Shown here: positions 7,682 to 63,987 of the stretch, in pieces
How the letters are laid out: each line of letters starts with the position of its first letter
Position numbering within the stretch: the first letter of the stretch is position 1
From: Candidatus Lutacidiplasmatales archaeon
GTDB taxonomy: Archaea > Thermoplasmatota > Thermoplasmata > Lutacidiplasmatales > UBA184
Assembly: GCA_044451945.1 (NCBI GenBank)
Contig: JBIOKR010000006.1
Span: forward strand, 8,605 to 72,604
DNA length: 64,000 bases
Reading direction: 5' to 3'
Notes under the pieces: model-generated
Told to the model about the DNA's origin: nothing
The model's database searches: none
Seen by the model: only the letters and a program-made list of their open reading frames with translations
Translations under genes and position numbers: made by a program

Positions 7682-8428
7682 GTGGTCCCGCTCGGGAGCG
7701 CCATGCAGACGGTCACCCTCGAGTTCCGCACCGAGGACCTCACGCTCCTCGGGGTCATTCCTCCGAACTTCTTCCAGAAGTACGAGGAGGTCGAGCTCCT
7801 CGAGACGCTCCGCCTCGAGCGCGGCTTTCGCCTGCAGCTACTGCGTCTGCGCCGCCGCACTCCGCTTCGGTCCGAGGGGGACCTCGAGCGCGAATCCCGA
7901 CGGATCCGTCGCCACTACGGCCTCGAGAGCTTCGAGGTGATTGAGCGGCGTCCGAGAAGCCGGGAGTACATTCTTCTCGTCCGGCAGCGCAACCCGGAGT
8001 GGCTCAAGCGGCTCCTCACGCTCTCCGGGGGAGAGATCACTCCGACGGCGCCGTTCCGCATCGCTGAGGAGCGGGTGGTGGCGACATTCCACGGGGAGGA
8101 GAGGGCGCTGAAGCGGGTCTTGGGTCGCCTCGAGCGGGAAGGGCTCTCCTTCCGTGTGCTGCGCGCCTCGACCCACCCGTACCTCGGCGACGCGGGGGCC
8201 GCCGCGCTCACGGGAAAGCAGCGGGCCGCCGTCGCCCGCGCCTGGGCGCTCGGCTTCTACGCCGTTCCCCGGAGGGTGACACTGAGCCGTCTCGCCAAGA
8301 GCACCGGCCAGAGCCCCCCGGCCCTCGGCAAGATGCTCCGACGGGCGGAGGGCCATCTGATCGCCCGATTCCTGAGCGCCACCGAGCCGGACGAGGGTGC
8401 CCCGGAGCCGGAAACGAAACCCGAGTAG
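7682..8428 (+). CDS. HTH_10 (bacterio-opsin activator-type) transcriptional regulator
   Basis: C-terminal LTGKQRAAVARAWALGFYAVPRRVTLSRLAKSTGQSPPALGKMLRRAEGHLIARF matches the Bat/HTH_10 DNA-binding domain. Start is GTG 7682 or ATG 7703 (MQTVTLEF). Confidence 0.75.
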   Translation: MVPLGSAMQTVTLEFRTEDLTLLGVIPPNFFQKYEEVELLETLRLERGFRLQLLRLRRRTPLRSEGDLERESRRIRRHYGLESFEVIERRPRSREYILLVRQRNPEWLKRLLTLSGGEITPTAPFRIAEERVVATFHGEERALKRVLGRLEREGLSFRVLRASTHPYLGDAGAAALTGKQRAAVARAWALGFYAVPRRVTLSRLAKSTGQSPPALGKMLRRAEGHLIARFLSATEPDEGAPEPETKPE

Positions 8429-29274: not shown

Positions 29275-32235
29275 CTACTCGCCAGTCGGCGGCGGGGGCT
29301 CGACCCAATCGCCCGTTTCGCTCGCCGGTGAGGTGGGGGGACGGCGTCTCAGAAGGAGAATCGCCGCGATGACGGCGACCGCGGCCAACGCCGCAATCAC
29401 GCCGAGGTAGAGCACGAACCCGCCCGCCCCATTCGACGGGGACGAGAGTTGCGGTGCCGGGGCCAAAACGCGGAGGGGGAACACGCTGCTCGAGACGCGG
29501 TCACCGAGGGCGTCGACGACGGTCACACTCACGCTGAAGTTGCCGCTGCCCGTCGGCTGGCATTCGATGGTCGACTGGTTGCCGGCGGCACATCCGGGCG
29601 GCAATCCCGACCACTCATACGTGTACGGGGAGAACCCGCCGGTCGCCGTAGCCTGGAGCGTGATCCCCGCTCCGACGTTCGCGCTGCTGACGTTCGCTGT
29701 CACGGCCGCGGTGAGCGGCGCGCCCACGACGACGTCGAGCGACTTGGAGACCTGGGTCGACAGGGCGTCGACCATCGTGACCACCACGAGGTAACCCCCG
29801 GCCCTGGCGAAGGTGTGCTCGATCGAGGCGGGCGCACTGACGACCGTGGAGTTGCCGAACGACCAGCGGAACGACAGGGGAGGCACGCCACCGACCGGTC
29901 CCGCGGTCAGCGTCACATTGAACGGGGCGAGTCCCCGGGGCGCGGAGGCGGAGAGCGTGAGCGCAGGATGCGCGGCGACGACCACGGTAAGGTTGTGCCG
30001 GGCGCTCTGGTGGCTTTGGTCCTCGACGAGGAGGCTGACGTTGAACGTCCCAGCCGTCGTGAACGTCACGGAGGGGCTCGGGTCGGTCGACGCGGGGACT
30101 CCGGGACCGAAGCTCCAGTTGTACGAGAAGGGGCCAAGCCCGCCGGCGACCACGGAGCTGAACAGGACGGCCAACGGGCCGTACCCCGAGGTCGGCGATG
30201 CACTCGCCGAAAGCTCCAGGGGAGAGACGACATCGACGGAGACGGCCCGGGTGACCCGGTCCCCACCGACGTCCGTGACCGTGGCGACCGCCGTGTAATT
30301 CCCGACGGTCCGATAGGTGTGCGACACCGACGCGGAAGAGGATCCGGGAAGGCCATCGCCGAACGCCCACCCATAGGTATAGGGGGACTCCCCGGCGCTC
30401 GCCGAGGCGTTGAACGGTACCGTCAGGGGCGCGACTCCTACCATCGTCGATGGGGTGACGGAGAGGTTGAGCGGCCCGAAGACCGAGACCGAGCCGGAGC
30501 TGTTCAAGTAGTCGTGGGCGGAATCGGTGACGTTGAGCGACCAGTTGTAGTCCCCCTTCGCGCGATACGTGTGGGTCACCTTGGCGAGCGCGCTCGAGCT
30601 CCCGTCGCCGAAGCTCCACTTGAGGGAGTAGGGCGCGTAGCCGCCAGCAACGTGCGACGTGAAGTTCACCGCGAGCGGGGCGTCGCCGCCCGCCGGTGCC
30701 GAGCTCGAGTTGCCGACGAGCGGTCCGACGACCGTGATCAAGAACTCGGTCGACCCGCTCAGGCTGCGCGCGTCGTCGATCTCGAGGCTCGCGAGGAAAG
30801 TCCCGCCGGTGGTGTAGCTGTGGGTGGCGTTCTCGGTCGTCGCATTCGTTGACCCGTCCCCGAACGACCAGTTGTACCGGAACGGTCCCTGGCCCCTTTC
30901 GGCGGTCGAGTTGAACGTCGTCTTCAACGGGGCGCCCCCGACGATCGGGGCGGCCGTCGCATTGAGCTCCACGCCCGAGATGAACAGCCACGTGTCGGTT
31001 CCGAAGCTGTTCGACCCCCCGACGGAGTTCTCGTTACCGGAGAAGGTGACGTCGGCTCCCATCTGGGAGTCGTAGGCGAACTCCGCGGCCCAGCGGCCCG
31101 GGGGAGCCGTGCCGACGTACGAAGTGATCTGGGTCCACTTGAGGCCTTTGAACAGCCATGTCTCCTGCGTCACCGAACCGTACGCCGAGGTGTAGCCGCT
31201 GAAGATGACGACGCCGCCCTGATTCGGGTCGAAGACGCCTACGTCGGTCCCTTCGAGGGCGGAGGGACGAGTCGTCTGGTTCTTGCTCATGTTCCAGAAC
31301 TTTCCGCCGTGGTAGGCCCAGGTGAGCCCGTGCGAGGTTCCCCCGCTGTCCGTCCCGGCGAAGTAGAGCACGATCGAGTCGCCCGGGTCGTCGTAGGCGA
31401 AGAAGCCTCCCATCGGGAGCGTGCCCTTCGTCTTCGAGGAGACGTCCTTCCAGGCCCCGTTCGTGAACTCCCACTCCTCCAGGGTGGAACTTCCCACCCC
31501 CGCGTTCGACAGCCAGACGTAGCCGTCCGAGCTGTCGTAGACGAGGGCGTTGGCGGCGTCCCGAGGAGAGGGGGCGACGACAAGGTTGAGTTGGTTCCAC
31601 CCCGAGGCGTTGAACGTCCAGGTGTCGTTGAGGGCGCACGTGGAACAGATGGAGATGAAGTTCGTCTGGCCGCCGAAGAGCAGGAGGGAGTCGAGCTGCG
31701 GGTCCCAGACGAGCCCAGCCCCCCAGCGGGCGGACGGCTCGGTCCCCACCGAACTGCTGACGTCGGTCCAGTTGCCGTCGACGAACTCCCAGGTGTCTCC
31801 AAGGGGGTTCCCGTAGGTGTCCTGTCCCCCGAACATCACCACGGCGTTGAGGAGGGGGTCGTAGGCGAGCGTCGAGGCTTGCCGGGCTCCGGGGGTGTTC
31901 GTGGAGTTCGTCCAATCCGTCCAATTGCCGTAGACGATCGAGCTCTTCGCGTTCGGCCGGGCGCTGAACGAAAGCCCGCTCCCCAAGGGAGCCGGTCGGG
32001 CGCCGGATCGAGGAGCGAGTGGGCCGGACGGCGCGACGCGAGTAGGGAGGCCGGCCCGTTCGCCCCTTGGCACGTGCGGATGCCCCGGCCCCAGCGCCGG
32101 AGAATGGGCCGGAGAGACCCCGGTAGTCGTCGGCAGGCCGACCATCAGTAGGCAAACCAACGCCGAGGCAACGGCGGCAACCATCGTGCCTGGGGCGGGA
32201 CGCCGCGGCTTCACGGTCCCCGGCTCGAGTAACAT
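29275..32235 (-). CDS. large surface protein: Kelch-type beta-propeller + tandem PKD domains + C-terminal TM anchor
   Basis: Signal/anchor MVAAVASALVCLLMVGL. Kelch-like blades (MFGGQDTYGN, LLFGGQTN, VIFSGYTS). About six PKD-like repeats marked by [NKGR]W[SA]FG[DPN]G. C-terminal LYLGVIAALAAVAVIAAILLLRRR. ATG 32235 chosen. Confidence 0.8.
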   Translation of the reverse strand: MLLEPGTVKPRRPAPGTMVAAVASALVCLLMVGLPTTTGVSPAHSPALGPGHPHVPRGERAGLPTRVAPSGPLAPRSGARPAPLGSGLSFSARPNAKSSIVYGNWTDWTNSTNTPGARQASTLAYDPLLNAVVMFGGQDTYGNPLGDTWEFVDGNWTDVSSSVGTEPSARWGAGLVWDPQLDSLLLFGGQTNFISICSTCALNDTWTFNASGWNQLNLVVAPSPRDAANALVYDSSDGYVWLSNAGVGSSTLEEWEFTNGAWKDVSSKTKGTLPMGGFFAYDDPGDSIVLYFAGTDSGGTSHGLTWAYHGGKFWNMSKNQTTRPSALEGTDVGVFDPNQGGVVIFSGYTSAYGSVTQETWLFKGLKWTQITSYVGTAPPGRWAAEFAYDSQMGADVTFSGNENSVGGSNSFGTDTWLFISGVELNATAAPIVGGAPLKTTFNSTAERGQGPFRYNWSFGDGSTNATTENATHSYTTGGTFLASLEIDDARSLSGSTEFLITVVGPLVGNSSSAPAGGDAPLAVNFTSHVAGGYAPYSLKWSFGDGSSSALAKVTHTYRAKGDYNWSLNVTDSAHDYLNSSGSVSVFGPLNLSVTPSTMVGVAPLTVPFNASASAGESPYTYGWAFGDGLPGSSSASVSHTYRTVGNYTAVATVTDVGGDRVTRAVSVDVVSPLELSASASPTSGYGPLAVLFSSVVAGGLGPFSYNWSFGPGVPASTDPSPSVTFTTAGTFNVSLLVEDQSHQSARHNLTVVVAAHPALTLSASAPRGLAPFNVTLTAGPVGGVPPLSFRWSFGNSTVVSAPASIEHTFARAGGYLVVVTMVDALSTQVSKSLDVVVGAPLTAAVTANVSSANVGAGITLQATATGGFSPYTYEWSGLPPGCAAGNQSTIECQPTGSGNFSVSVTVVDALGDRVSSSVFPLRVLAPAPQLSSPSNGAGGFVLYLGVIAALAAVAVIAAILLLRRRPPTSPASETGDWVEPPPPTGE

Positions 32236-57686: not shown

Positions 57687-58703
57687 GTGCCGGATTCCAC
57701 AGGATCTCGCCCCAAGGTGAGCGTAGTCATCGCGGGCCACGGCCGCACGGAGTTCTTCGAAGGGGCCGTGGAATCGGTCCGGCGCCAGACTCTGAGGGCG
57801 GCCGAGCGGGAGACCTTGGTACTCAAAGACGTCCGAAATCCCGAGCTCGATCGCCGACTCGAAGCGGCGGGAGCAACCGTCCTCCAGCTCGAGGACGGCC
57901 CCCGGGGTGGCTGGCTCAGCGCCGCGTTATCAAATGCGCGGGGGGAGCTGATCGCCTTCCTGGACGACGACGATGAATTCGAGCCGTTCAAACTCGCACG
58001 GGCCGTACAGGCGTTCGAGAATCATCCGTCCGCGGCGTACTACCACAACAGGATTCGGCGTCTGGACGCTACTTCAACCGCCGAGCCGCCCCCCGACGCC
58101 AACCCTCCGCTGCGTGCGGTGACTTCCGAGCAAGCACGGCGGTCGTTCTCCCGGCTATGGCGCGAAGGCGCGGGTTTCAATCTGAGCTCGATCGTCGTCC
58201 GACGGTCGCTGATTGAGAATGACCCGGGGCAGCTCGCTCAGGTCCAGGTGAGCGTCCCAGCCTACCTGTTCTACTCGGCGCTACGAGGCCCAGCGGGGCT
58301 CCTGCTGGATGAAGGAGAGTGGACGCGCTATCGCTTCGCTTCGCCGACGGCGCGCGGGTACGCGTCGCCGGGACCCCGTTCCGCTCGCCGGCTCGCCGAG
58401 GTGGCTCGGGAGCATCTGCTCGACGCAAGAATCCTCGCCGCCATCGCGGAGTCGATGGACCTGCCGGAGGCCCGCCGCCCACCGGAAGCCGCCCTGGCCC
58501 AAGCGACCTTGGTGATCGCGCTCGATGAGGGGACGAACGGGAGGATCGAGAGGTTACGGGCGCTACTGCGTCTTTTCCGACTCCGACCATGGGGAGCTCT
58601 CGCGGCGGACCGCGCCGTGCCCATTCTCTCGGTCTGGGCCCTCCTGGACCCGTGCGATGCCCACCGGCGGTGGGTTCGACTCAAGGCAACGGACCGAGGC
58701 TAG
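57687..58703 (+). CDS. family 2 glycosyltransferase
   Basis: KVSVVIAGHGRTEFFEGAVESVRRQT and DxD motif FLDDDDEF. GTG start. Confidence 0.78.
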   Translation: MPDSTGSRPKVSVVIAGHGRTEFFEGAVESVRRQTLRAAERETLVLKDVRNPELDRRLEAAGATVLQLEDGPRGGWLSAALSNARGELIAFLDDDDEFEPFKLARAVQAFENHPSAAYYHNRIRRLDATSTAEPPPDANPPLRAVTSEQARRSFSRLWREGAGFNLSSIVVRRSLIENDPGQLAQVQVSVPAYLFYSALRGPAGLLLDEGEWTRYRFASPTARGYASPGPRSARRLAEVAREHLLDARILAAIAESMDLPEARRPPEAALAQATLVIALDEGTNGRIERLRALLRLFRLRPWGALAADRAVPILSVWALLDPCDAHRRWVRLKATDRG

Positions 58704-58876
58704 GCAGCTTCCTCTGGCGTAACCGGGGAGTTGTCCCCCACTTCACCCTAGGAGAGGAGAGTGTGACTACCTCCCGTCGCCTCGGGCCCTTCCCGGCCGA
58801 GCGCTCCGACTCGAAGTTCGGTGCCTACCCCTCGTCCGAGAGCCCCTAAATAGAACGGACGCTCGCCGACTCCGAA

Positions 58877-58950
58877 GGGCCCGTAGTATAGCTTGGATAT
58901 CACAGAGGCCTCCGGAGCCTCGGACCCGGGTTCGAATCCCGGCGGGCCCG
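58877..58950 (+). tRNA. tRNA-Arg (anticodon CCG)
   Basis: GGGCCCGTAGTATAGCTTGGATATCACAGAGGCCTCCGGAGCCTCGGACCCGGGTTCGAATCCCGGCGGGCCCG. Perfect acceptor stem, anticodon arm GAGGC-CTCCGGA-GCCTC, T-arm CCGGG-TTCGAAT-CCCGG. The D-stem is irregular (needs a bulged C). Confidence 0.85.
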
Positions 58951-58953
58951 TCG
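58936..58953. repeat. direct repeat copy 1 (putative attL) = tRNA-Arg 3' end
   Basis: ATCCCGGCGGGCCCGTCG. Identical 18-mer at 60757-60774. Confidence 0.75.
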
Positions 58954-59232
58954 AACTACGATTCGGATCGACAGTCTCTGAGCCTCGCCCCGCCTCATCT
59001 GGAACGAACCGGCCCGTTGACCAGCCGTCGCCGATCTCGGCTCCGGGCGGCACGCGACCGAGGGGTGGGGGATGCTGCCGGGCTTGGGCGGTCGGGGCAG
59101 GTGCCGGTTTCTCGATTGCGATTCCTCGCTCAGCGCTCGCCTCCCGCCGCCGCGTGCGGGGAGAACCGGATGGCCGGCCGATGACCCACGTGACCTGGGC
59201 GAACGGTGACCACCGGGCGTATATATCACCAA

Positions 59233-59973
59233 ATGATATATGACCTCGTGACGACCCTCCGGACCTTTGCCGTCCCGGCCACGTTCCAGCGTATCTGGGA
59301 GAAGATCGGAAGCCGGCCATTCTCGCCTCGCGAGGTGGAGGAGCTTGCCCGCAAGCGGGGGGTCGCCAACTACGTCGTGCTTTCTCGATTGACGCAAGGC
59401 GGCTGGCTCCTGCGACTGAGTAGGGGTCGGTATCTTGCCGCGGAGCCGTTAGTCCGTATGGATAGCCGGCTCCGAACTCGGCTCGCGCCGTTCCGGGAGA
59501 GGTGCTTCTATCCGATCCTCCAGGGGGCGGTGGCCTCGATCCTCCAAGTGTACGCCGGCCAGGTGATCGCCATCGCCCTGTTTGGGTCCGCCGCACGCGG
59601 TACCGACAGCCCCGAGAGCGACCTCGACCTTCTCGTACTGGTCGATCGCCGCACGGCCTCTCCCATGGACGACGCAAGGACTCGGGCGCGAATCGGACGA
59701 TTGTCGGCCGGAGCCCGAATGGAAGAGTGGGAGACGCGCCGACATTTTCACCAGGTTCAGGTCGTCATCGCGATCCCGTCGGACCTCGACCGACCGGGCC
59801 CGCTGTTCCTCGATTTGTCCCAGGACGCGCATGTCCTCTGGGACCCTTCCGGAGTCTTGGCGCGGGGACTGCGCCGTTTCGCCGCCAGGTTACGGTCGGC
59901 GGGTGCTCGCCGGCGGCACTCGAGCCAACTCGGAACGTACTGGGATCTGGGTCGAGCCTTCGCCGAGGGGTGA
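59233..59973 (+). CDS. winged-helix (AbiEi-N-like) domain fused to minimal nucleotidyltransferase (MNT antitoxin-type)
   Basis: N-terminal PFSPREVEELARKRGVANYVVLSRLTQGGWLLRLSRGRYL (RGxY wHTH). Pol-beta NTase motif ALFGSAARGTDSPESDLDLLVLVD. Start ambiguous: GTG 59206, ATG 59233 or GTG 59248. Confidence 0.75.
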   Translation: MIYDLVTTLRTFAVPATFQRIWEKIGSRPFSPREVEELARKRGVANYVVLSRLTQGGWLLRLSRGRYLAAEPLVRMDSRLRTRLAPFRERCFYPILQGAVASILQVYAGQVIAIALFGSAARGTDSPESDLDLLVLVDRRTASPMDDARTRARIGRLSAGARMEEWETRRHFHQVQVVIAIPSDLDRPGPLFLDLSQDAHVLWDPSGVLARGLRRFAARLRSAGARRRHSSQLGTYWDLGRAFAEG

Positions 59974-59974
59974 C

Positions 59975-60430
59975 GTGAAGGGAAACCCTCGGTTCGCCAC
60001 CGGAACACTCCGTCGTGGTCTCGATGCGCTGGAGGTGGCCGAATCCGCCTTCGAGCGCCGACGCTTCGCCCTCGTGGTGTCGCTCGCTCAGCAAGCGGCC
60101 GAGCTCGCCCTCAAGGCCGACCTTCGGTGGGCGGGAATCGACCCCCCTCGGCAACACGATGTCGGGGACCTGCTTCGCGCCCGGGGCGCGAGGTTTCCGG
60201 CGTGGTTCCGCCGCGAGGTGCCCTTCCTGCGGGAATCCTCCGAACTCCTCGCACGCCTTCGCGAGCCGGCCACGTACGGAAGCCCTTCGGAGGATCGATC
60301 GCCGGGTGAGCTCTTCGCCGACCCCGCCGTCGCTCAGGATGCTCTGGATCGCGGGCGCCGGGTCTGCGCTCTCTCGTCCCGGCTGGTCGCTCGGAACGGC
60401 GGCCCCTCCGCTGCCTTGGTGAAGGCGTAG
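59975..60430 (+). CDS. HEPN-domain protein (toxin-type partner of MNT)
   Basis: 151 aa from GTG 59975, 1 nt after the MNT stop. Helical; FALVVSLAQQAAELALKADLRWAGIDPPRQHDVGDLL and LARLREPATYG resemble PF05168-type HEPN. Confidence 0.7.
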   Translation: MKGNPRFATGTLRRGLDALEVAESAFERRRFALVVSLAQQAAELALKADLRWAGIDPPRQHDVGDLLRARGARFPAWFRREVPFLRESSELLARLREPATYGSPSEDRSPGELFADPAVAQDALDRGRRVCALSSRLVARNGGPSAALVKA

Positions 60431-60432
60431 CT

Positions 60433-60672
60433 TTGAGCGAAACCCCTACTCGGGTTCAAGGGCAGTACCTGGCCTACATCTACAGCTACACGAGGGTCCA
60501 CCGGCGACCCCCCTCGGAGAACGAGATCGCCGAGTTCTTCGGAGTCCGAGGGCCGTCGGCCCATCGAACGATCGTTGGGCTCGAGAGTCGTGGATTCCTC
60601 TCCCGAATTCCGGGCCAACCCCGAACGCTCACGGTGCTGCTTCCCCGAAAAGACATACCGGATCTGGAATGA
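60433..60672 (+). CDS. stand-alone LexA-N-terminal-like winged-helix DNA-binding protein
   Basis: 79 aa. QGQYLAYIYSYTRVHRRPPSENEIAEFFGVRGPSAHRTIVGLESRGFLSRIPGQPRTLTVL follows the LexA_DNA_bind pattern. TTG start 2 nt after the HEPN stop. Confidence 0.65.
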   Translation: MSETPTRVQGQYLAYIYSYTRVHRRPPSENEIAEFFGVRGPSAHRTIVGLESRGFLSRIPGQPRTLTVLLPRKDIPDLE

Positions 60673-60756
60673 ACTCGATTGGCGACCCGCTGACGTGCTT
60701 CCGGGCGGCCGAGCCCTGCGAGAAGGACTCATCGTGCGGCCGGCTCGCACTAGCGT

Positions 60757-60774
60757 ATCCCGGCGGGCCCGTCG
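60757..60774. repeat. direct repeat copy 2 (putative attR)
   Basis: ATCCCGGCGGGCCCGTCG, identical to 58936-58953. 20 of 21 identical when extended 3 nt to the left. Confidence 0.75.
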
Positions 60775-60849
60775 TCCCCATCTGTCGCGTGTCGCTCGGC
60801 CGCCACCGAAGGCCCCGGAAGGTGCCGTAGGCTTCGTGCGAAAGGATCC

Positions 60850-61257
60850 TTAGTTCAGCCAGAGTGTTTCGTGGAGTTCACGGAAGTGAGCGTCTCCGGT
60901 GAGGAGGCGAGCCCTGGTGCGGCGAGTGGTAGCGAGCACCAAGCCGTCTCCAAGACCCGGAGGGTTGAGTCGTCGGGACCTGGCAAGCTCCCGAAGCTCG
61001 CGGGTCGCCAACGAGGCGACGGCCACCAAGTCGGGGTCGATCGGGACAAGGGCTGAGGACTCGACGATTCCCCTCAGTTCTCGCCGAATCTGACCTTCCT
61101 CGAAACCTTCCCGCAGACACTTGTGGGCTACCTCTGCCAACACAATCGCAGGCGTGTAGCAGGATTCGGCTGCCTCCATGAGGCCCTTGACCTTGACCCC
61201 GAGTGGGGTTCCTTTGATCAACTCAATCCACGCATAGGAGTGAATCGTGAGACTCAA
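60850..61257 (-). CDS. vapC: PIN-domain protein (VapC-like toxin)
   Basis: 135 aa. IVLAEV (Glu), GLGDGLVLATT (Asp), LLTGDAHF (Asp). The first strand reads LTIHSYAWIE, with His where PIN domains normally have Asp. TTG start. Confidence 0.72.
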   Translation of the reverse strand: MSLTIHSYAWIELIKGTPLGVKVKGLMEAAESCYTPAIVLAEVAHKCLREGFEEGQIRRELRGIVESSALVPIDPDLVAVASLATRELRELARSRRLNPPGLGDGLVLATTRRTRARLLTGDAHFRELHETLWLN

Positions 61258-61513
61258 GACGATCCTCCTCGCGGAACTTGGAAATGGCCCCCTGTCCGCT
61301 TCCGAGGATCCAATTGAGCGCCCGTGCGCGTCGCTCCCGTACCAGCTTCAGAATGGTCTCGTCGGCGCTGCGGGTATGGAAGACCTCTCTCAAGCGCTCC
61401 AGTTCGGTCAGGGTCTGCCGCGAGACGCGCACGGACGTGTCAGCGACGGCCATGGCCGACTGCATGCGAGCATGCATGATGAGAGTTCCCTGGTCGATGA
61501 ACAATGGGCGCAT
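61223..61513 (-). CDS. putative VapB-type antitoxin (RHH-like)
   Basis: Small ORF immediately upstream of and overlapping the PIN gene. VRVSRQTLTELERLREVF looks like a ribbon-helix-helix strand plus helix. The true start may be an internal Met (for example 61465). Confidence 0.55.
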   Translation of the reverse strand: MRPLFIDQGTLIMHARMQSAMAVADTSVRVSRQTLTELERLREVFHTRSADETILKLVRERRARALNWILGSGQGAISKFREEDRLESHDSLLCVD

Positions 61514-61774: not shown

Positions 61775-62791
61775 CTATGCGACGATGTACACGATCCCCG
61801 AGCTGAACGCCGCCACATACATCCGGTCGTTGACCTCGTCATACGCGAGCCCACCGGGGAGGGTCGCGACACCCTTGATCGTCTTCACTACGCTGGTGCC
61901 CGAGATGACGGAGATCGTGCCGGCGATCCCGTTTGTGACGTAGATCTCAAGTTTTGCCTGATCCCACGCGATGCCTTGGGGCGCCTTTCCGACCGGGATG
62001 GTCGCCAGGATGTGCCCGGAGCCGGACATCACGGTGACGTTGTTGCCGGTGATGATGTAGTCCGAGTGGTCCGCGACATCGTAGGCGCACCCGTAGGGCG
62101 TCGTCGACCCGAGGAGGACGTTGCCGACCGGTGCCGACAGGGGGGAGTAGGCGTTGAGGAGGGTGATGTTGTAGGACAGTTGGTTCGTGACGACGATCAC
62201 GTTGTAGTACGGGTCGTAGCAGATCCCGAACGGCGAGCTCCCGACCGACACGTTCCCGATGACGGCGGTGCCGGAGATCGCGAAGACGGCGTCGGCGTAG
62301 GCATCCGTGATGAGCATGAGGTTGTCGCCCGGATCCCAGATGATCGATTCGAGGGCGGCGAACGCCGTGTTCGTGATGGTCGAGACGACCGTCGTTCCTG
62401 AGATGACGTAGACGACATTGAGGTTGAGGTCCGTGACGTACATCTCGTTATCCGCGGGGTCGAACGCTGCCGACACGGGCTGGCTCCCGGAGGGCAGGGT
62501 GATCGTTCCCACCAACGTGCAGGTGCCGCTCAGGACGGTGATGTTGGCGCTTCCGTAGTTCGGAACATAGACGTAGTGATTGACGGGGTCGAATCCCGGG
62601 CGGACTGGTTTGGTTCCGACGGCGCACGGGCCGCTGATCGGTCCGTGGACGATCGTCCCAGAAACCGGGTGGAAGGCGCCCGCGCTCAGCACTCCGCCGA
62701 AGGCGAGCATCCCCACGGCCGAGATGCTCATCGCCATCACCGTCCACCCGAATCGCCTATGTCGCGCTCCCTGGTTGCCCCGGTTCTTCAC
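61775..62791 (-). CDS. secreted YVTN-type beta-propeller repeat protein (paralogue 1)
   Basis: Signal-like KNRGNQGARHRRFGWTVMAMSISAVGMLAFGG. Repeats VYVPNYGSANITVLSG, MYVTDLNLNVVYVISG, IVVTNQLSYNITLLNA, IYVTNGIAGTISVISG. Start ambiguous: GTG 62791, ATG 62839 or ATG 62737. Confidence 0.78.
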   Translation of the reverse strand: MKNRGNQGARHRRFGWTVMAMSISAVGMLAFGGVLSAGAFHPVSGTIVHGPISGPCAVGTKPVRPGFDPVNHYVYVPNYGSANITVLSGTCTLVGTITLPSGSQPVSAAFDPADNEMYVTDLNLNVVYVISGTTVVSTITNTAFAALESIIWDPGDNLMLITDAYADAVFAISGTAVIGNVSVGSSPFGICYDPYYNVIVVTNQLSYNITLLNAYSPLSAPVGNVLLGSTTPYGCAYDVADHSDYIITGNNVTVMSGSGHILATIPVGKAPQGIAWDQAKLEIYVTNGIAGTISVISGTSVVKTIKGVATLPGGLAYDEVNDRMYVAAFSSGIVYIVA

Positions 62792-62997
62792 GTTCGTTAT
62801 CCCCTGCCGCTTCTCGAGGGGGGAGCCGGGCACGGTCATCAACCCATCGATGGCGTTCCCCGGCTCCCGGAGCTTCGGCGGGCCGCCGGGCCGGCCTCGC
62901 GGTCGAACCCCGGCGGACCCTGCGCGATTGTGCCATGGGTCGGTCGGCCGGGTCACGGCGGGGTCACCGCGGCCCGGTCGGGGAGCCGGCCCCCCCC

Positions 62998-63987
62998 TTA
63001 TGCGACGATATAGACGACGTTCGAACCGAACGCCGCGACGTACATCCGGTCGTTCACCTCGTCGTAGGTCAGCCCGTAGGGGGTGGTCGCAACGCCCTTG
63101 ATGGTCTTGACGACGCTGGTGCCAGAAATTACGGAGATGGTGCCGGCGTTGCCGTTCGTGACGTACACCGCCAACTTCGCCTGGTCCCAAGCGATGCCCT
63201 TCGGATACTTTCCCACGGGGATGTTCGCCAGCACATAACCGGTGCCGGTCATCACCGTGACCTGGTTGCCGTTGAGGATGTAGTCCTCGTGATTGGCGAT
63301 GTCGAAGGCGCAGCCCGTCGGCCCGTACGACACGTTGATGTTCGCAAGCGCCGATGCGAGAGGGGAGTAGGCGTTCAGCAGGGTGACGTTGGTCGAAGCC
63401 TGGTTGGCGACGACAATCACATTGTAGTAGGGGTCGTAGCAGATGCCGTACGGGTAGCTGCCGACCGCGACCGACCCGATGACCGTGCTGCCGGAGATCG
63501 CGATGACCGCGTTGGCGTAGCTGTCGGCGACCAGCATGAGGTTGTCCCCGGGATCCCAGACGAGTTGCGCCGGGGCGACGAACGACGAGCTCGTGATGGT
63601 CGAGACGACGGTGGTGCCGGAGATGGCATAGACCCCGGGCAGTCCGATGTCCGTGACGTACATCTCGTTGTTCGCCGGGTCGAACGCCGCCGCGTACGGG
63701 ATGCTTCCGAAAGGCAACGTGATCGTGCCGACCTTCACGCAGGTGGCGCTCAGGACGGTGATGTTGGAACTCAAGGAGTTGGGCACGTAGACGTCGTGAT
63801 TGACGGGGTCAAAGCCCGGAAACGTCGGCTCGGTTCCTACCGAGCACGGTCCACTCACCGGACCGTGGCTGATCGTGGAGGAGACCGGACGGAATGCACC
63901 GGCCGTGATCGCCCCGCTCAGGGCGAGCATTCCAACCGCCGAAACGCTCAACGCCATCACGGTCCACTCGAATCGGCCGCGTCGCAA
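62998..63987 (-). CDS. secreted YVTN-type beta-propeller repeat protein (paralogue 2)
   Basis: 329 aa. MRRGRFEWTVMALSVSAVGMLALSG signal, same repeat architecture and colinear with paralogue 1 along the full length. TTG start. Confidence 0.8.
   Translation of the reverse strand: MRRGRFEWTVMALSVSAVGMLALSGAITAGAFRPVSSTISHGPVSGPCSVGTEPTFPGFDPVNHDVYVPNSLSSNITVLSATCVKVGTITLPFGSIPYAAAFDPANNEMYVTDIGLPGVYAISGTTVVSTITSSSFVAPAQLVWDPGDNLMLVADSYANAVIAISGSTVIGSVAVGSYPYGICYDPYYNVIVVANQASTNVTLLNAYSPLASALANINVSYGPTGCAFDIANHEDYILNGNQVTVMTGTGYVLANIPVGKYPKGIAWDQAKLAVYVTNGNAGTISVISGTSVVKTIKGVATTPYGLTYDEVNDRMYVAAFGSNVVYIVA

Follow-up and report, generated by a model that had tools for sequence, protein, structure and literature searches.

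The gene for tRNA-Arg(CCG) in a Candidatus Lutacidiplasmatales archaeon was found to be followed by a 1.8-kb segment that was bracketed by 2 exact copies of the 3' end of the tRNA and contained only 3 genes. The segment was located in a stretch of 64,000 nucleotides of contig JBIOKR010000006.1 (assembly GCA_044451945.1, positions 8,605 to 72,604 of the forward strand), here called the window, and the genome comes from a study series on metagenome-assembled genomes of acidic-soil Lutacidiplasmatales (PMC9287336). A gene for a GT2 glycosyltransferase was located upstream of the tRNA gene, and a Pfam screen of 50 open reading frames (ORFs) in the window indicated a housekeeping context, as judged from the best 25 of 101 families. 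An earlier note, made from the sequence alone, had interpreted the repeats as the attL and attR scar of a site-specific integration. We consider it very probable that the segment is a site-specific insertion at the tRNA-Arg gene, as indicated by empty sites in related species, exact copies of the tRNA end that were located only downstream of the tRNA, and a family of tyrosine integrases associated with the same tRNA. The features of the locus are listed in Table 1.

The 3 genes encoded a winged helix-turn-helix (wHTH) MNT nucleotidyltransferase, a HEPN-domain protein and a LexA-N-like wHTH protein, and the assignments made in the earlier note agreed with the Pfam matches. The MNT protein, which was 100% identical to the NCBI protein P0001, matched NTP_transf_2 (E = 3e-8), Polbeta and, weakly, the AbiEi_4 wHTH domain, and its GS...DLD motif (GSAARG...SDLDLL) was invariant across 5 homologs. 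The HEPN gene started with a GTG codon 1 nucleotide past the MNT stop codon, and the homologs of its product, with the N-terminus MKGNPRF, were 72% to 85% identical in sequence, with long invariant stretches. Adjacent genes for an MNT protein with a GSx(n)DxD motif and for a HEPN-domain protein are the arrangement of a HEPN-MNT pair, and the invariant stretches in both proteins fit a functional toxin-antitoxin pair. We infer from the sequences that the pair may be an active toxin-antitoxin system. The palindrome and TATA-like box upstream of the MNT gene, which is a putative promoter or operator of the operon, was conserved at 4 other loci (L002, L147, L006, and L007). Searches for proteins identical to the third wHTH protein and the PIN protein encoded downstream of the segment gave no matches, probably because the gene start calls differ.

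Table 1. Features identified at the tRNA-Arg(CCG) locus, with coordinates given as positions in the window
Feature	Coordinates	Strand	Remarks
tRNA-Arg(CCG)	58877..58950	+	Intact; integration target; ARAGORN and Rfam RF00005 (53.4 bits)
attL core ATCCCGGCGGGCCCGTCG	58936..58953	+	Exact repeat, left copy
Left arm, non-coding	58954..59110	.	Without detectable homolog (blastn/tblastn against 140 related loci)
Decayed internal copy of ~70-nt repeat unit	59111..59180	+	Arm and degenerate core GGAGAACCGGATGGCCGGCCG
Palindrome and TATA-like box TATATATCACCAAATGATATAT	59220..59241	.	Putative promoter/operator of the operon
wHTH-MNT nucleotidyltransferase	59248..59973	+	Putative antitoxin; 241 amino acids (NCBI annotation); ORF open from 59206
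HEPN-domain protein	59975..60430	+	Putative toxin; Pfam HEPN E = 9e-17
LexA-N/DtxR-like winged-helix protein	60433..60672	+	79 amino acids; Pfam LexA_DNA_bind E = 9e-7; third cassette gene
Right arm of the cassette (P-arm-like)	60674..60756	+	Homologous to core-adjoining arms in L002
attR core, partial tRNA-Arg 3' end	60757..60774	+	Exact 18-nt copy of ATCCCGGCGGGCCCGTCG
vapC (PIN) 60850-61257 and vapB-like 61223-61513	60850..61513	-	Native flank outside the insert; Pfam PIN E = 3e-13
Predicted attB junction (empty site)			GGTTCGAATCCCGGCGGGCCCGTCGTCCCCATC; also given as GGTTCGAATCCCGGCGGGCCCGTCGTCCCCATCTGTCGCG
Predicted attP junction (excised circle)			CTAGCGTATCCCGGCGGGCCCGTCGAACTACG; also given as GCTCGCACTAGCGTATCCCGGCGGGCCCGTCGAACTACGATTCGG

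The repeated 18-mer consisted of the final 15 nucleotides of the tRNA and the trinucleotide TCG, and it spanned the last 2 nucleotides of the T-loop, the 3' strand of the T-stem, the 3' strand of the acceptor stem, the discriminator and the TCG trailer. It occurred exactly twice in the window, in the same orientation, and when the repeat was widened by 3 nucleotides to the left, 20 of the 21 positions agreed, as previously described. None of 100 dinucleotide-shuffled sequences contained the 18-mer, and the chance expectation for this specific sequence was 2.3e-5. The earlier statement on the improbability of an exact 18-mer repeat in 64 kb holds for the tRNA end, but it does not hold for just any pair, since some exact pair of 18-mers was obtained in 15% to 28% of Markov simulations of a window with 67.6% G+C, and 2 chance pairs of 17-mers are present. 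The significance of the repeat therefore lies in the fact that this particular 18-mer is the 3' end of a tRNA, and in the comparative data. Matches to the tRNA end at 7891-7911 and 62583-62607 were rejected as chance similarities, because the first is located inside a coding ORF and the second within a conserved GFDP coding stretch.

The bracketed DNA had been described as visibly lower in G+C, which was not borne out: its G+C content was 66.7%, compared with 67.6% for the window, corresponding to the 19th percentile of all 1803-bp windows, and low G+C as a sign of foreign origin was dropped. Nor was the segment uniform. It contained a decayed copy of the repeat unit of about 70 nucleotides whose other copy in the window has the right-hand 18-mer as its end. 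The decayed copy aligned with an intact unit ending in ...GCGAGTCCCGGCGGGCCCG that precedes a homologous cassette in L002 and L147, and also with the right arm of the window segment at 60674-60744, although in the latter case 12 of 300 shuffled sequences scored equally high. The right arm in turn aligned with both core-adjoining arms in L002, with scores that were reached by none of 300 shuffled sequences for the left copy and by 5 of 300 for the right copy. The left arm gave no match in blastn and tblastn searches over 140 related loci; it might be all that is left of a deleted element, or else belong to the attP arm. The segment is hence a composite of about 160 nucleotides of unmatched DNA, an old att relic and a 1.6-kb cassette with its arm, enclosed by 2 perfect cores, and the earlier reading of the repeats as an att scar stands with that modification.

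In agreement with the earlier note, no integrase was detected in the segment. The ORFs of the insert had no integrase match in Pfam, and searches against the six-frame translation of all 64 kb with a tyrosine recombinase family from related genomes (F8, see below) gave only matches with E > 0.2, both by tblastn and with a profile. No tyrosine recombinase was among the best 25 of 101 families in the Pfam screen of the window ORFs, and neither of the ORFs reading across the cores (58893-59243, 60669-60830) matched any family. A split integrase of the SSV type was considered and rejected, as there were no int(N) and int(C) halves at the ends of the insert and no integrase similarity within it. 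The segment has the repeats of a tRNA-targeted integrative element but not the integrase, and resembles a cis-mobilizable element (CIME), in which attL and attR are kept and genes for integration and transfer are missing.

To place the repeat in a comparative context, the 3' half of the tRNA-Arg gene was scanned in one genome per species, which resulted in 119 loci, almost all from Thermoplasmata. In 3 of these (L022, L092, and L110), an intact tRNA-Arg gene was followed by orthologs of the vapC-vapB genes that flank the segment in the window, at distances of 79, 73, and 23 nucleotides, with amino acid sequence identities of 56% to 64% for VapC and 67% to 71% for VapB. The distance from attR to vapC in the window was 79 nucleotides, and the partial tRNA copy occupied the position that is held by the full tRNA in the other 3 loci. 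The 1.8-kb segment in the window is therefore an insertion, and the comparison shows that it was conservative, at the tRNA 3' end, with the core duplicated. Empty sites of this kind were what the earlier note had proposed to look for, and the repeat is not one of a dispersed family unrelated to tRNA-Arg. Another 4 pairs of occupied and empty sites were identified: L086/L043, where the flanks were 92% identical beginning at the tRNA end; L112/L065, with upstream genes that were 82% identical; L113/L129; and the metagenomic pair L130/L137, which were 87% to 88% identical from the T-loop onward.

We also noted a 2.6-kb contig from the same population (L001; GCA_022749835.1, JAKIWY010000244.1), which matched the window at 100% identity within 58133-60540, a range that includes the tRNA and the greater part of the cassette. 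The contig began with 166 unrelated nucleotides and broke off in the wHTH gene; the divergence may represent an assembly break or strain heterogeneity at the locus.

Insertions at the same tRNA gene were identified in several other species. All 8 exact copies of the 15-nucleotide tRNA end in the 119 loci (about 0.8 Mb) were located downstream on the same strand; the upstream regions and the opposite strand contained none. With up to 6 mismatches in 25 nucleotides allowed, there were 18 downstream, 3 upstream and 1 reverse copies. Copies of 15 to 29 nucleotides were found 1.1 to 5.2 kb from the tRNA in L035, L082, L086, L112 (2 copies), L113, and L129. The cassettes bounded by exact tRNA-end copies were 0.9 to 5.2 kb in size, sometimes several in a row as in L112 with its 3 cores, and contained one to a few genes, mostly for toxin-antitoxin systems. 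The cargo included VapBC, PIN-AbrB, Zn-ribbon-MNT with HepT, CYTH and ArsR-AHSA1-RibD_C. No integrase or integrase fragment was detected in about 10 small inserts. In the related arrays of L076 and L061, cassette A (RibD_C/AHSA1/ArsR) and cassette B (VapBC) were arranged in opposite order, and in each array the cores were better preserved toward the tRNA.

A motif of 25 nucleotides, TAACACTTTCCTTATAGAACCCATG, was observed directly 3' of tRNA-Arg in about 19 loci (e.g. L011, L017, L027, and L094) and also 3' of the internal partial copies in L035, L112, L113, and L129, often with a gene for a DNA methyltransferase just downstream. Rather than a native trailer, this motif may represent the left arm of a family of elements.

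The 3-gene cassette itself was found in 2 other genomic contexts (L002-L005 and L147-L149), as had been suggested as a check, with about 80% identity at the DNA level from window position 59172, just upstream of the promoter, to the stop codon of the wHTH gene, which accompanied the MNT-HEPN genes in both contexts. There was no tRNA-Arg gene nearby in either of them; about 150 nucleotides before the MNT gene, however, both contained the sequence ...GCGAGTCCCGGCGGGCCCG, which differs from the tRNA-Arg end by a single change, and a second copy, in a decayed state, was located about 100 nucleotides past the wHTH gene. The left boundary of the MNT cassette was directly at an att-like core in all 3 contexts. 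In L002, the cassette was flanked by imperfect direct repeats of about 75 nucleotides that ended in a core similar to the tRNA-Arg end (none of 300 shuffled sequences scored as high), whereas in L147 the left copy was exact and the right copy was too decayed to score above the shuffled sequences.

More distant homologs of the MNT and HEPN genes were located in L006 and L007. The region 2310-9869 in L006 contained 4 exact copies on the same strand of TCCCCTCGGGCCCG, a 14-mer from the 3' end of tRNA-Lys(CTT), all of which were intergenic and separated a HicAB module, an MNT-HEPN-SNF2 helicase module and 2 small ORFs, in that order, with an adjoining IS110 transposase gene. The cores in L007 separated 2 MNT toxin-antitoxin pairs. 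The motifs in the arms to the left of the cores were common to unrelated arrays, even between Arg-type and Lys-type cores, and the repeat units did not fold better than shuffled sequences (z from +1.05 to -1.78). It was also observed that the Arg-type core at +1661 in L061 and the Lys-type core at 8441-8465 in L006 had a common motif immediately to the left, ATTCGAATAnCTAGTTGCTCGAA, and that L130 shared another, AAACGGnAnCATAAGAGTTCGA, with 9114-9138 in L007.

The family of tyrosine recombinases mentioned above, here called F8, consisted of proteins of about 440 amino acids. In 11 loci, the F8 gene started 31 to 43 nucleotides past tRNA-Arg on the same strand, while in 10 other loci it closely preceded the tRNA and was oriented away from it, and half of these 10 genes were fragments. 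The assignment was based on a match to the PHROG_1 integrase (E = 4e-8), PF00589 matches in 3 of 6 members, and remote matches to archaeal XerA structures and XerA/C/D models in a profile search; a single F8 sequence gave no match in Pfam or the PDB. A total of 113 homologs were identified, mostly in Thermoplasmata, some of which were annotated as integrases. Queries of IMG/VR with a single sequence and with an alignment identified no F8 relative, and hence neither a viral or plasmid reference nor a free attP. Because F8 genes also followed tRNA-Lys(CTT), beginning about 40 to 60 nucleotides past the tRNA (L145:9870-11308 and L146:9887-11326), the family is not restricted to a single target tRNA. 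The 2 tRNAs have a common acceptor 3' strand, CGGGCCCG. The divergent integrase and a cassette were found together only in L082.

The far attR of the integrase-bearing elements was searched for over 10 kb past the integrase gene in L142 and 7.8 kb in L093, with no clear second core and one doubtful relic. In L142 (3611-13516), about 9 kb beginning with an intact F8 gene were located between tRNA-Arg and an AHSA1-ArsR-RibD_C block that in 5 other species was found directly 3' of tRNA-Arg. This is probably a full-size element with a decayed far att site.

Taken together, the data can be accommodated by the following scenario. An att site on incoming DNA, with a core of 18 bp that matched the tRNA end exactly, would have recombined with the tRNA gene, so that an intact tRNA was rebuilt on the left (attL) and a partial copy was left on the right (attR), beside the original vapC-vapB genes. 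The cassette would be a small non-autonomous unit whose integration, and possible excision, depended on a tyrosine recombinase acting in trans, for which F8, with its genes at the same tRNA in related Thermoplasmata, would be the best candidate. We infer that an F8-type enzyme catalyzed the recombination and that the cassette already lacked an integrase gene when it moved rather than losing one later. Since the outer cores are perfect and the internal relic is heavily decayed, the composite may have arrived in one recent event, and addiction to the toxin-antitoxin pair would account for the persistence of such cassettes. The element would then be an archaeal counterpart of the bacterial CIMEs. 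We lean, with some reserve, toward this interpretation as a whole, including the mobilization in trans of a non-autonomous, att-flanked cassette.

Several observations weigh against it. The empty sites are from other species (56% to 71% amino acid identity) and not from strains of the same species, and the perfect state of the cores cannot be used to date the event, given how short a target 18 bp is. The enzyme acting in trans is hypothetical for this genome, given that no integrase was found in the window. A metagenome scan with the core and flank ATCCCGGCGGGCCCGTCGWMC yielded no attP circle and no attB from the same species; the 12 matches were 9 chance similarities in high-G+C bacterial DNA and 3 sequences from other Thermoplasmata. 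The MNT protein was found on only 2 contigs of a single population, and there is therefore no sign of recent spread in multiple copies. Finally, decay has affected many of the internal cores in the arrays, so that many of the array cassettes are probably fixed relics.

An origin of the repeat by chance, or through a process other than integration such as replication slippage or homologous recombination with another tRNA-like sequence, can be considered effectively refuted. Some exact pair of 18-mers is not unusual in simulations of the window, but this particular one had a very low expectation and was absent from all shuffled sequences, relatives have empty sites, and the same duplication, as judged from the exact 15-mer, occurs in many species and always downstream on the same strand. 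A serious contender, which in our view falls short of being probable, is a decay in situ, whereby a full-size plasmid or provirus with an F8-type integrase gene beside attL was deleted down to the toxin-antitoxin genes beside attR and became fixed, without ever having moved as a small element. The integrase gene of the full elements begins exactly where such a deletion would start, and the VapBC cassettes have a constant right end, with the vapC stop codon about 35 nucleotides before the end of the core, and variable left parts, as in nested deletions. The decay of many cores would also fit, and there are precedents, in that CIMEs are derived by decay in the literature (PMC5704250) and some of the Dehalococcoides ssrA islands without an integration module are thought to be fixed (PMC3146451). 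On the other hand, no fragment of an integrase was detectable in the small inserts or in the left arm of the window segment, the left end of the MNT cassette coincides with an att-like core in each of 3 contexts, and an old, decayed relic lies within 2 perfect cores in the window. The cassette order is moreover permuted between related arrays, and since the decay of the cores follows their position in each array, independent decay in situ is hard to invoke. The data thus lean toward mobilization in trans over a reduced remnant.

It could also be imagined that the tRNA locus is a platform for capture like that of integrons, where a resident tyrosine recombinase encoded beside the tRNA handles the insertion, excision, and shuffling of cassettes that have promoters and end in a tRNA-derived site of about 75 nucleotides. 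The multi-cassette arrays in L112, L006, and L007, growth at the tRNA-proximal end in L113/L129 and L112/L065, the permuted cassette order and the conserved arm motifs beside cores of both types would be in line with such a system, and the F8 genes located upstream of the tRNA and transcribed away from it, in 10 loci, have the geometry of intI and attI. We nevertheless consider it very improbable: a divergent integrase and a cassette co-occur at a single locus, the gene upstream of the tRNA in the window encodes a glycosyltransferase, the sites are not attC-like in that they fold no better than shuffled sequences, the cassettes are multi-gene operons in both orientations, and many cores are decayed. 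A broader version, which we regard as rather unlikely, is that Thermoplasmata have a tRNA-anchored cassette system analogous to integrons, with insertion, excision and reshuffling at the tRNA gene by F8, encoded elsewhere or beside the tRNA. The small promoter-bearing cassettes, mostly with toxin-antitoxin and defense genes, would then end in a site of about 75 nucleotides, the last 14 to 25 of which correspond to the 3' end of tRNA-Arg(CCG) or tRNA-Lys(CTT), and the element in the window would be an active or recently active member.

The interpretation of the segment as a cassette mobilized in trans invites a comparison with known systems. CIMEs in Streptococcus and other Firmicutes are flanked by att sites, have lost the genes for integration and transfer, and often occur in tandem with other elements (PMC5704250). 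Like these, the element in the window is bounded by attL and attR sites that stem from the target gene's 3' end and has no genes for integrase or transfer, and here too cassettes occur in tandem with elements at the same site and mobilization would need a supply of a related integrase. The presence of F8 at the same tRNA, the tandem arrays and the permuted cassette order are circumstantial evidence for accretion and decay as in CIMEs. The element in the window differs in its archaeal host, its much smaller size of 1.8 kb and its cargo of a toxin-antitoxin operon only, and also in that no conjugative partner is known; a derivation from an autonomous element would be hypothetical here. In Dehalococcoides, each ssrA island is delimited by repeats of about 20 bp that copy the 3' end of ssrA and have a conserved motif next to them, and 15 islands without an integration module have been proposed to be cis-mobilizable or fixed (PMC3146451). 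These islands also form rows downstream of a single small-RNA gene, with repeats of its 3' end, a motif just upstream of the repeats and, as in the window, an insertion point in the T-loop. However, they are large, rely on the serine recombinase DsiB and carry rdhA genes, as opposed to a tyrosine recombinase candidate, a tRNA target, and cassettes of 0.7 to 5 kb that mostly contain toxin-antitoxin modules.

In archaea, integrated elements and "gene capture" at tRNA genes were reportedly described by She et al. in 2001. Arrays of integrated elements that re-use one site have been documented (PMC6563490), and integration of the SSV type splits the integrase gene into int(N) and int(C) at the element ends (PMC7253208). 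The element in the window has partial tRNA repeats as borders and re-use of the site into arrays in common with the archaeal elements at tRNA genes, but it has no int halves, and the F8 genes beside tRNAs are intact and located outside the core. Integrons, including archaeal ones, contain arrays of small cassettes without recombinase genes that are enriched in toxin-antitoxin systems (PMC9668308). The cassettes described here are likewise small, lacking in recombinase genes, rich in toxin-antitoxin genes, and inserted at the end nearest to the primary site. In contrast to integron cassettes, they have no attC hairpins and no IntI or attI by the array in the window, their sites are copies of a tRNA 3' end, and they have several genes and promoters of their own.

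HEPN-MNT modules are classified as type VII toxin-antitoxin systems and occur in Shewanella and Aphanizomenon. The pair in the window is similar to the known modules in the adjacent MNT and HEPN genes and in the GS...DxD motif of the MNT protein. It is different in that the MNT protein has an N-terminal AbiEi-like wHTH domain, that a third gene encodes a wHTH protein, and that the HEPN protein, which belongs to PF05168, shows no obvious Rx4-6H motif and instead has RQHD and REPATYG as invariant motifs.

Two further groups of repeats were also observed in the window. Tandem paralogous genes for secreted beta-propeller proteins (YVTN/SGL-like) were located on the reverse strand at 61775-63190 and 62998-63987, with 77% to 80% identity at the DNA level and a period of about 1220 nucleotides; the real start of the first gene is probably near 62770. 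In this region, an intergenic sequence at 62897-62921 on the forward strand, 2.1 kb past attR, matched the T-arm/acceptor 3' half of tRNA-Arg at 19 of 25 positions. It may be an old att relic, in which case vapBC and the first propeller gene would constitute an older cassette, or a chance similarity. Between 29621 and 54338, the repeat finder identified a 4-copy family of 36-nucleotide sequences (at 29621, 30377, 39491, and 54303) that were 69% to 81% identical, which is probably a coding-sequence motif or a chance similarity.

Considered alone, the element in the window is an ordinary outcome of integration, an att-flanked island without an integrase that is stabilized by a toxin-antitoxin pair. 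What sets it apart is the host lineage, the very small size, the restriction of the cargo to toxin-antitoxin genes, and the breadth of the surrounding array phenomenon. The 3' flank of tRNA-Arg(CCG), and apparently also of tRNA-Lys(CTT), is a hotspot for arrays of integrase-less mini-cassettes in uncultured Thermoplasmata from soil and sediment, and a previously uncharacterized family of tyrosine recombinases is linked to the same tRNAs. If the cassettes do move in trans, this would be a simple route by which toxin-antitoxin and defense genes spread among archaea, and the defined att sites together with the candidate integrase could serve as genetic tools for a lineage that has none.

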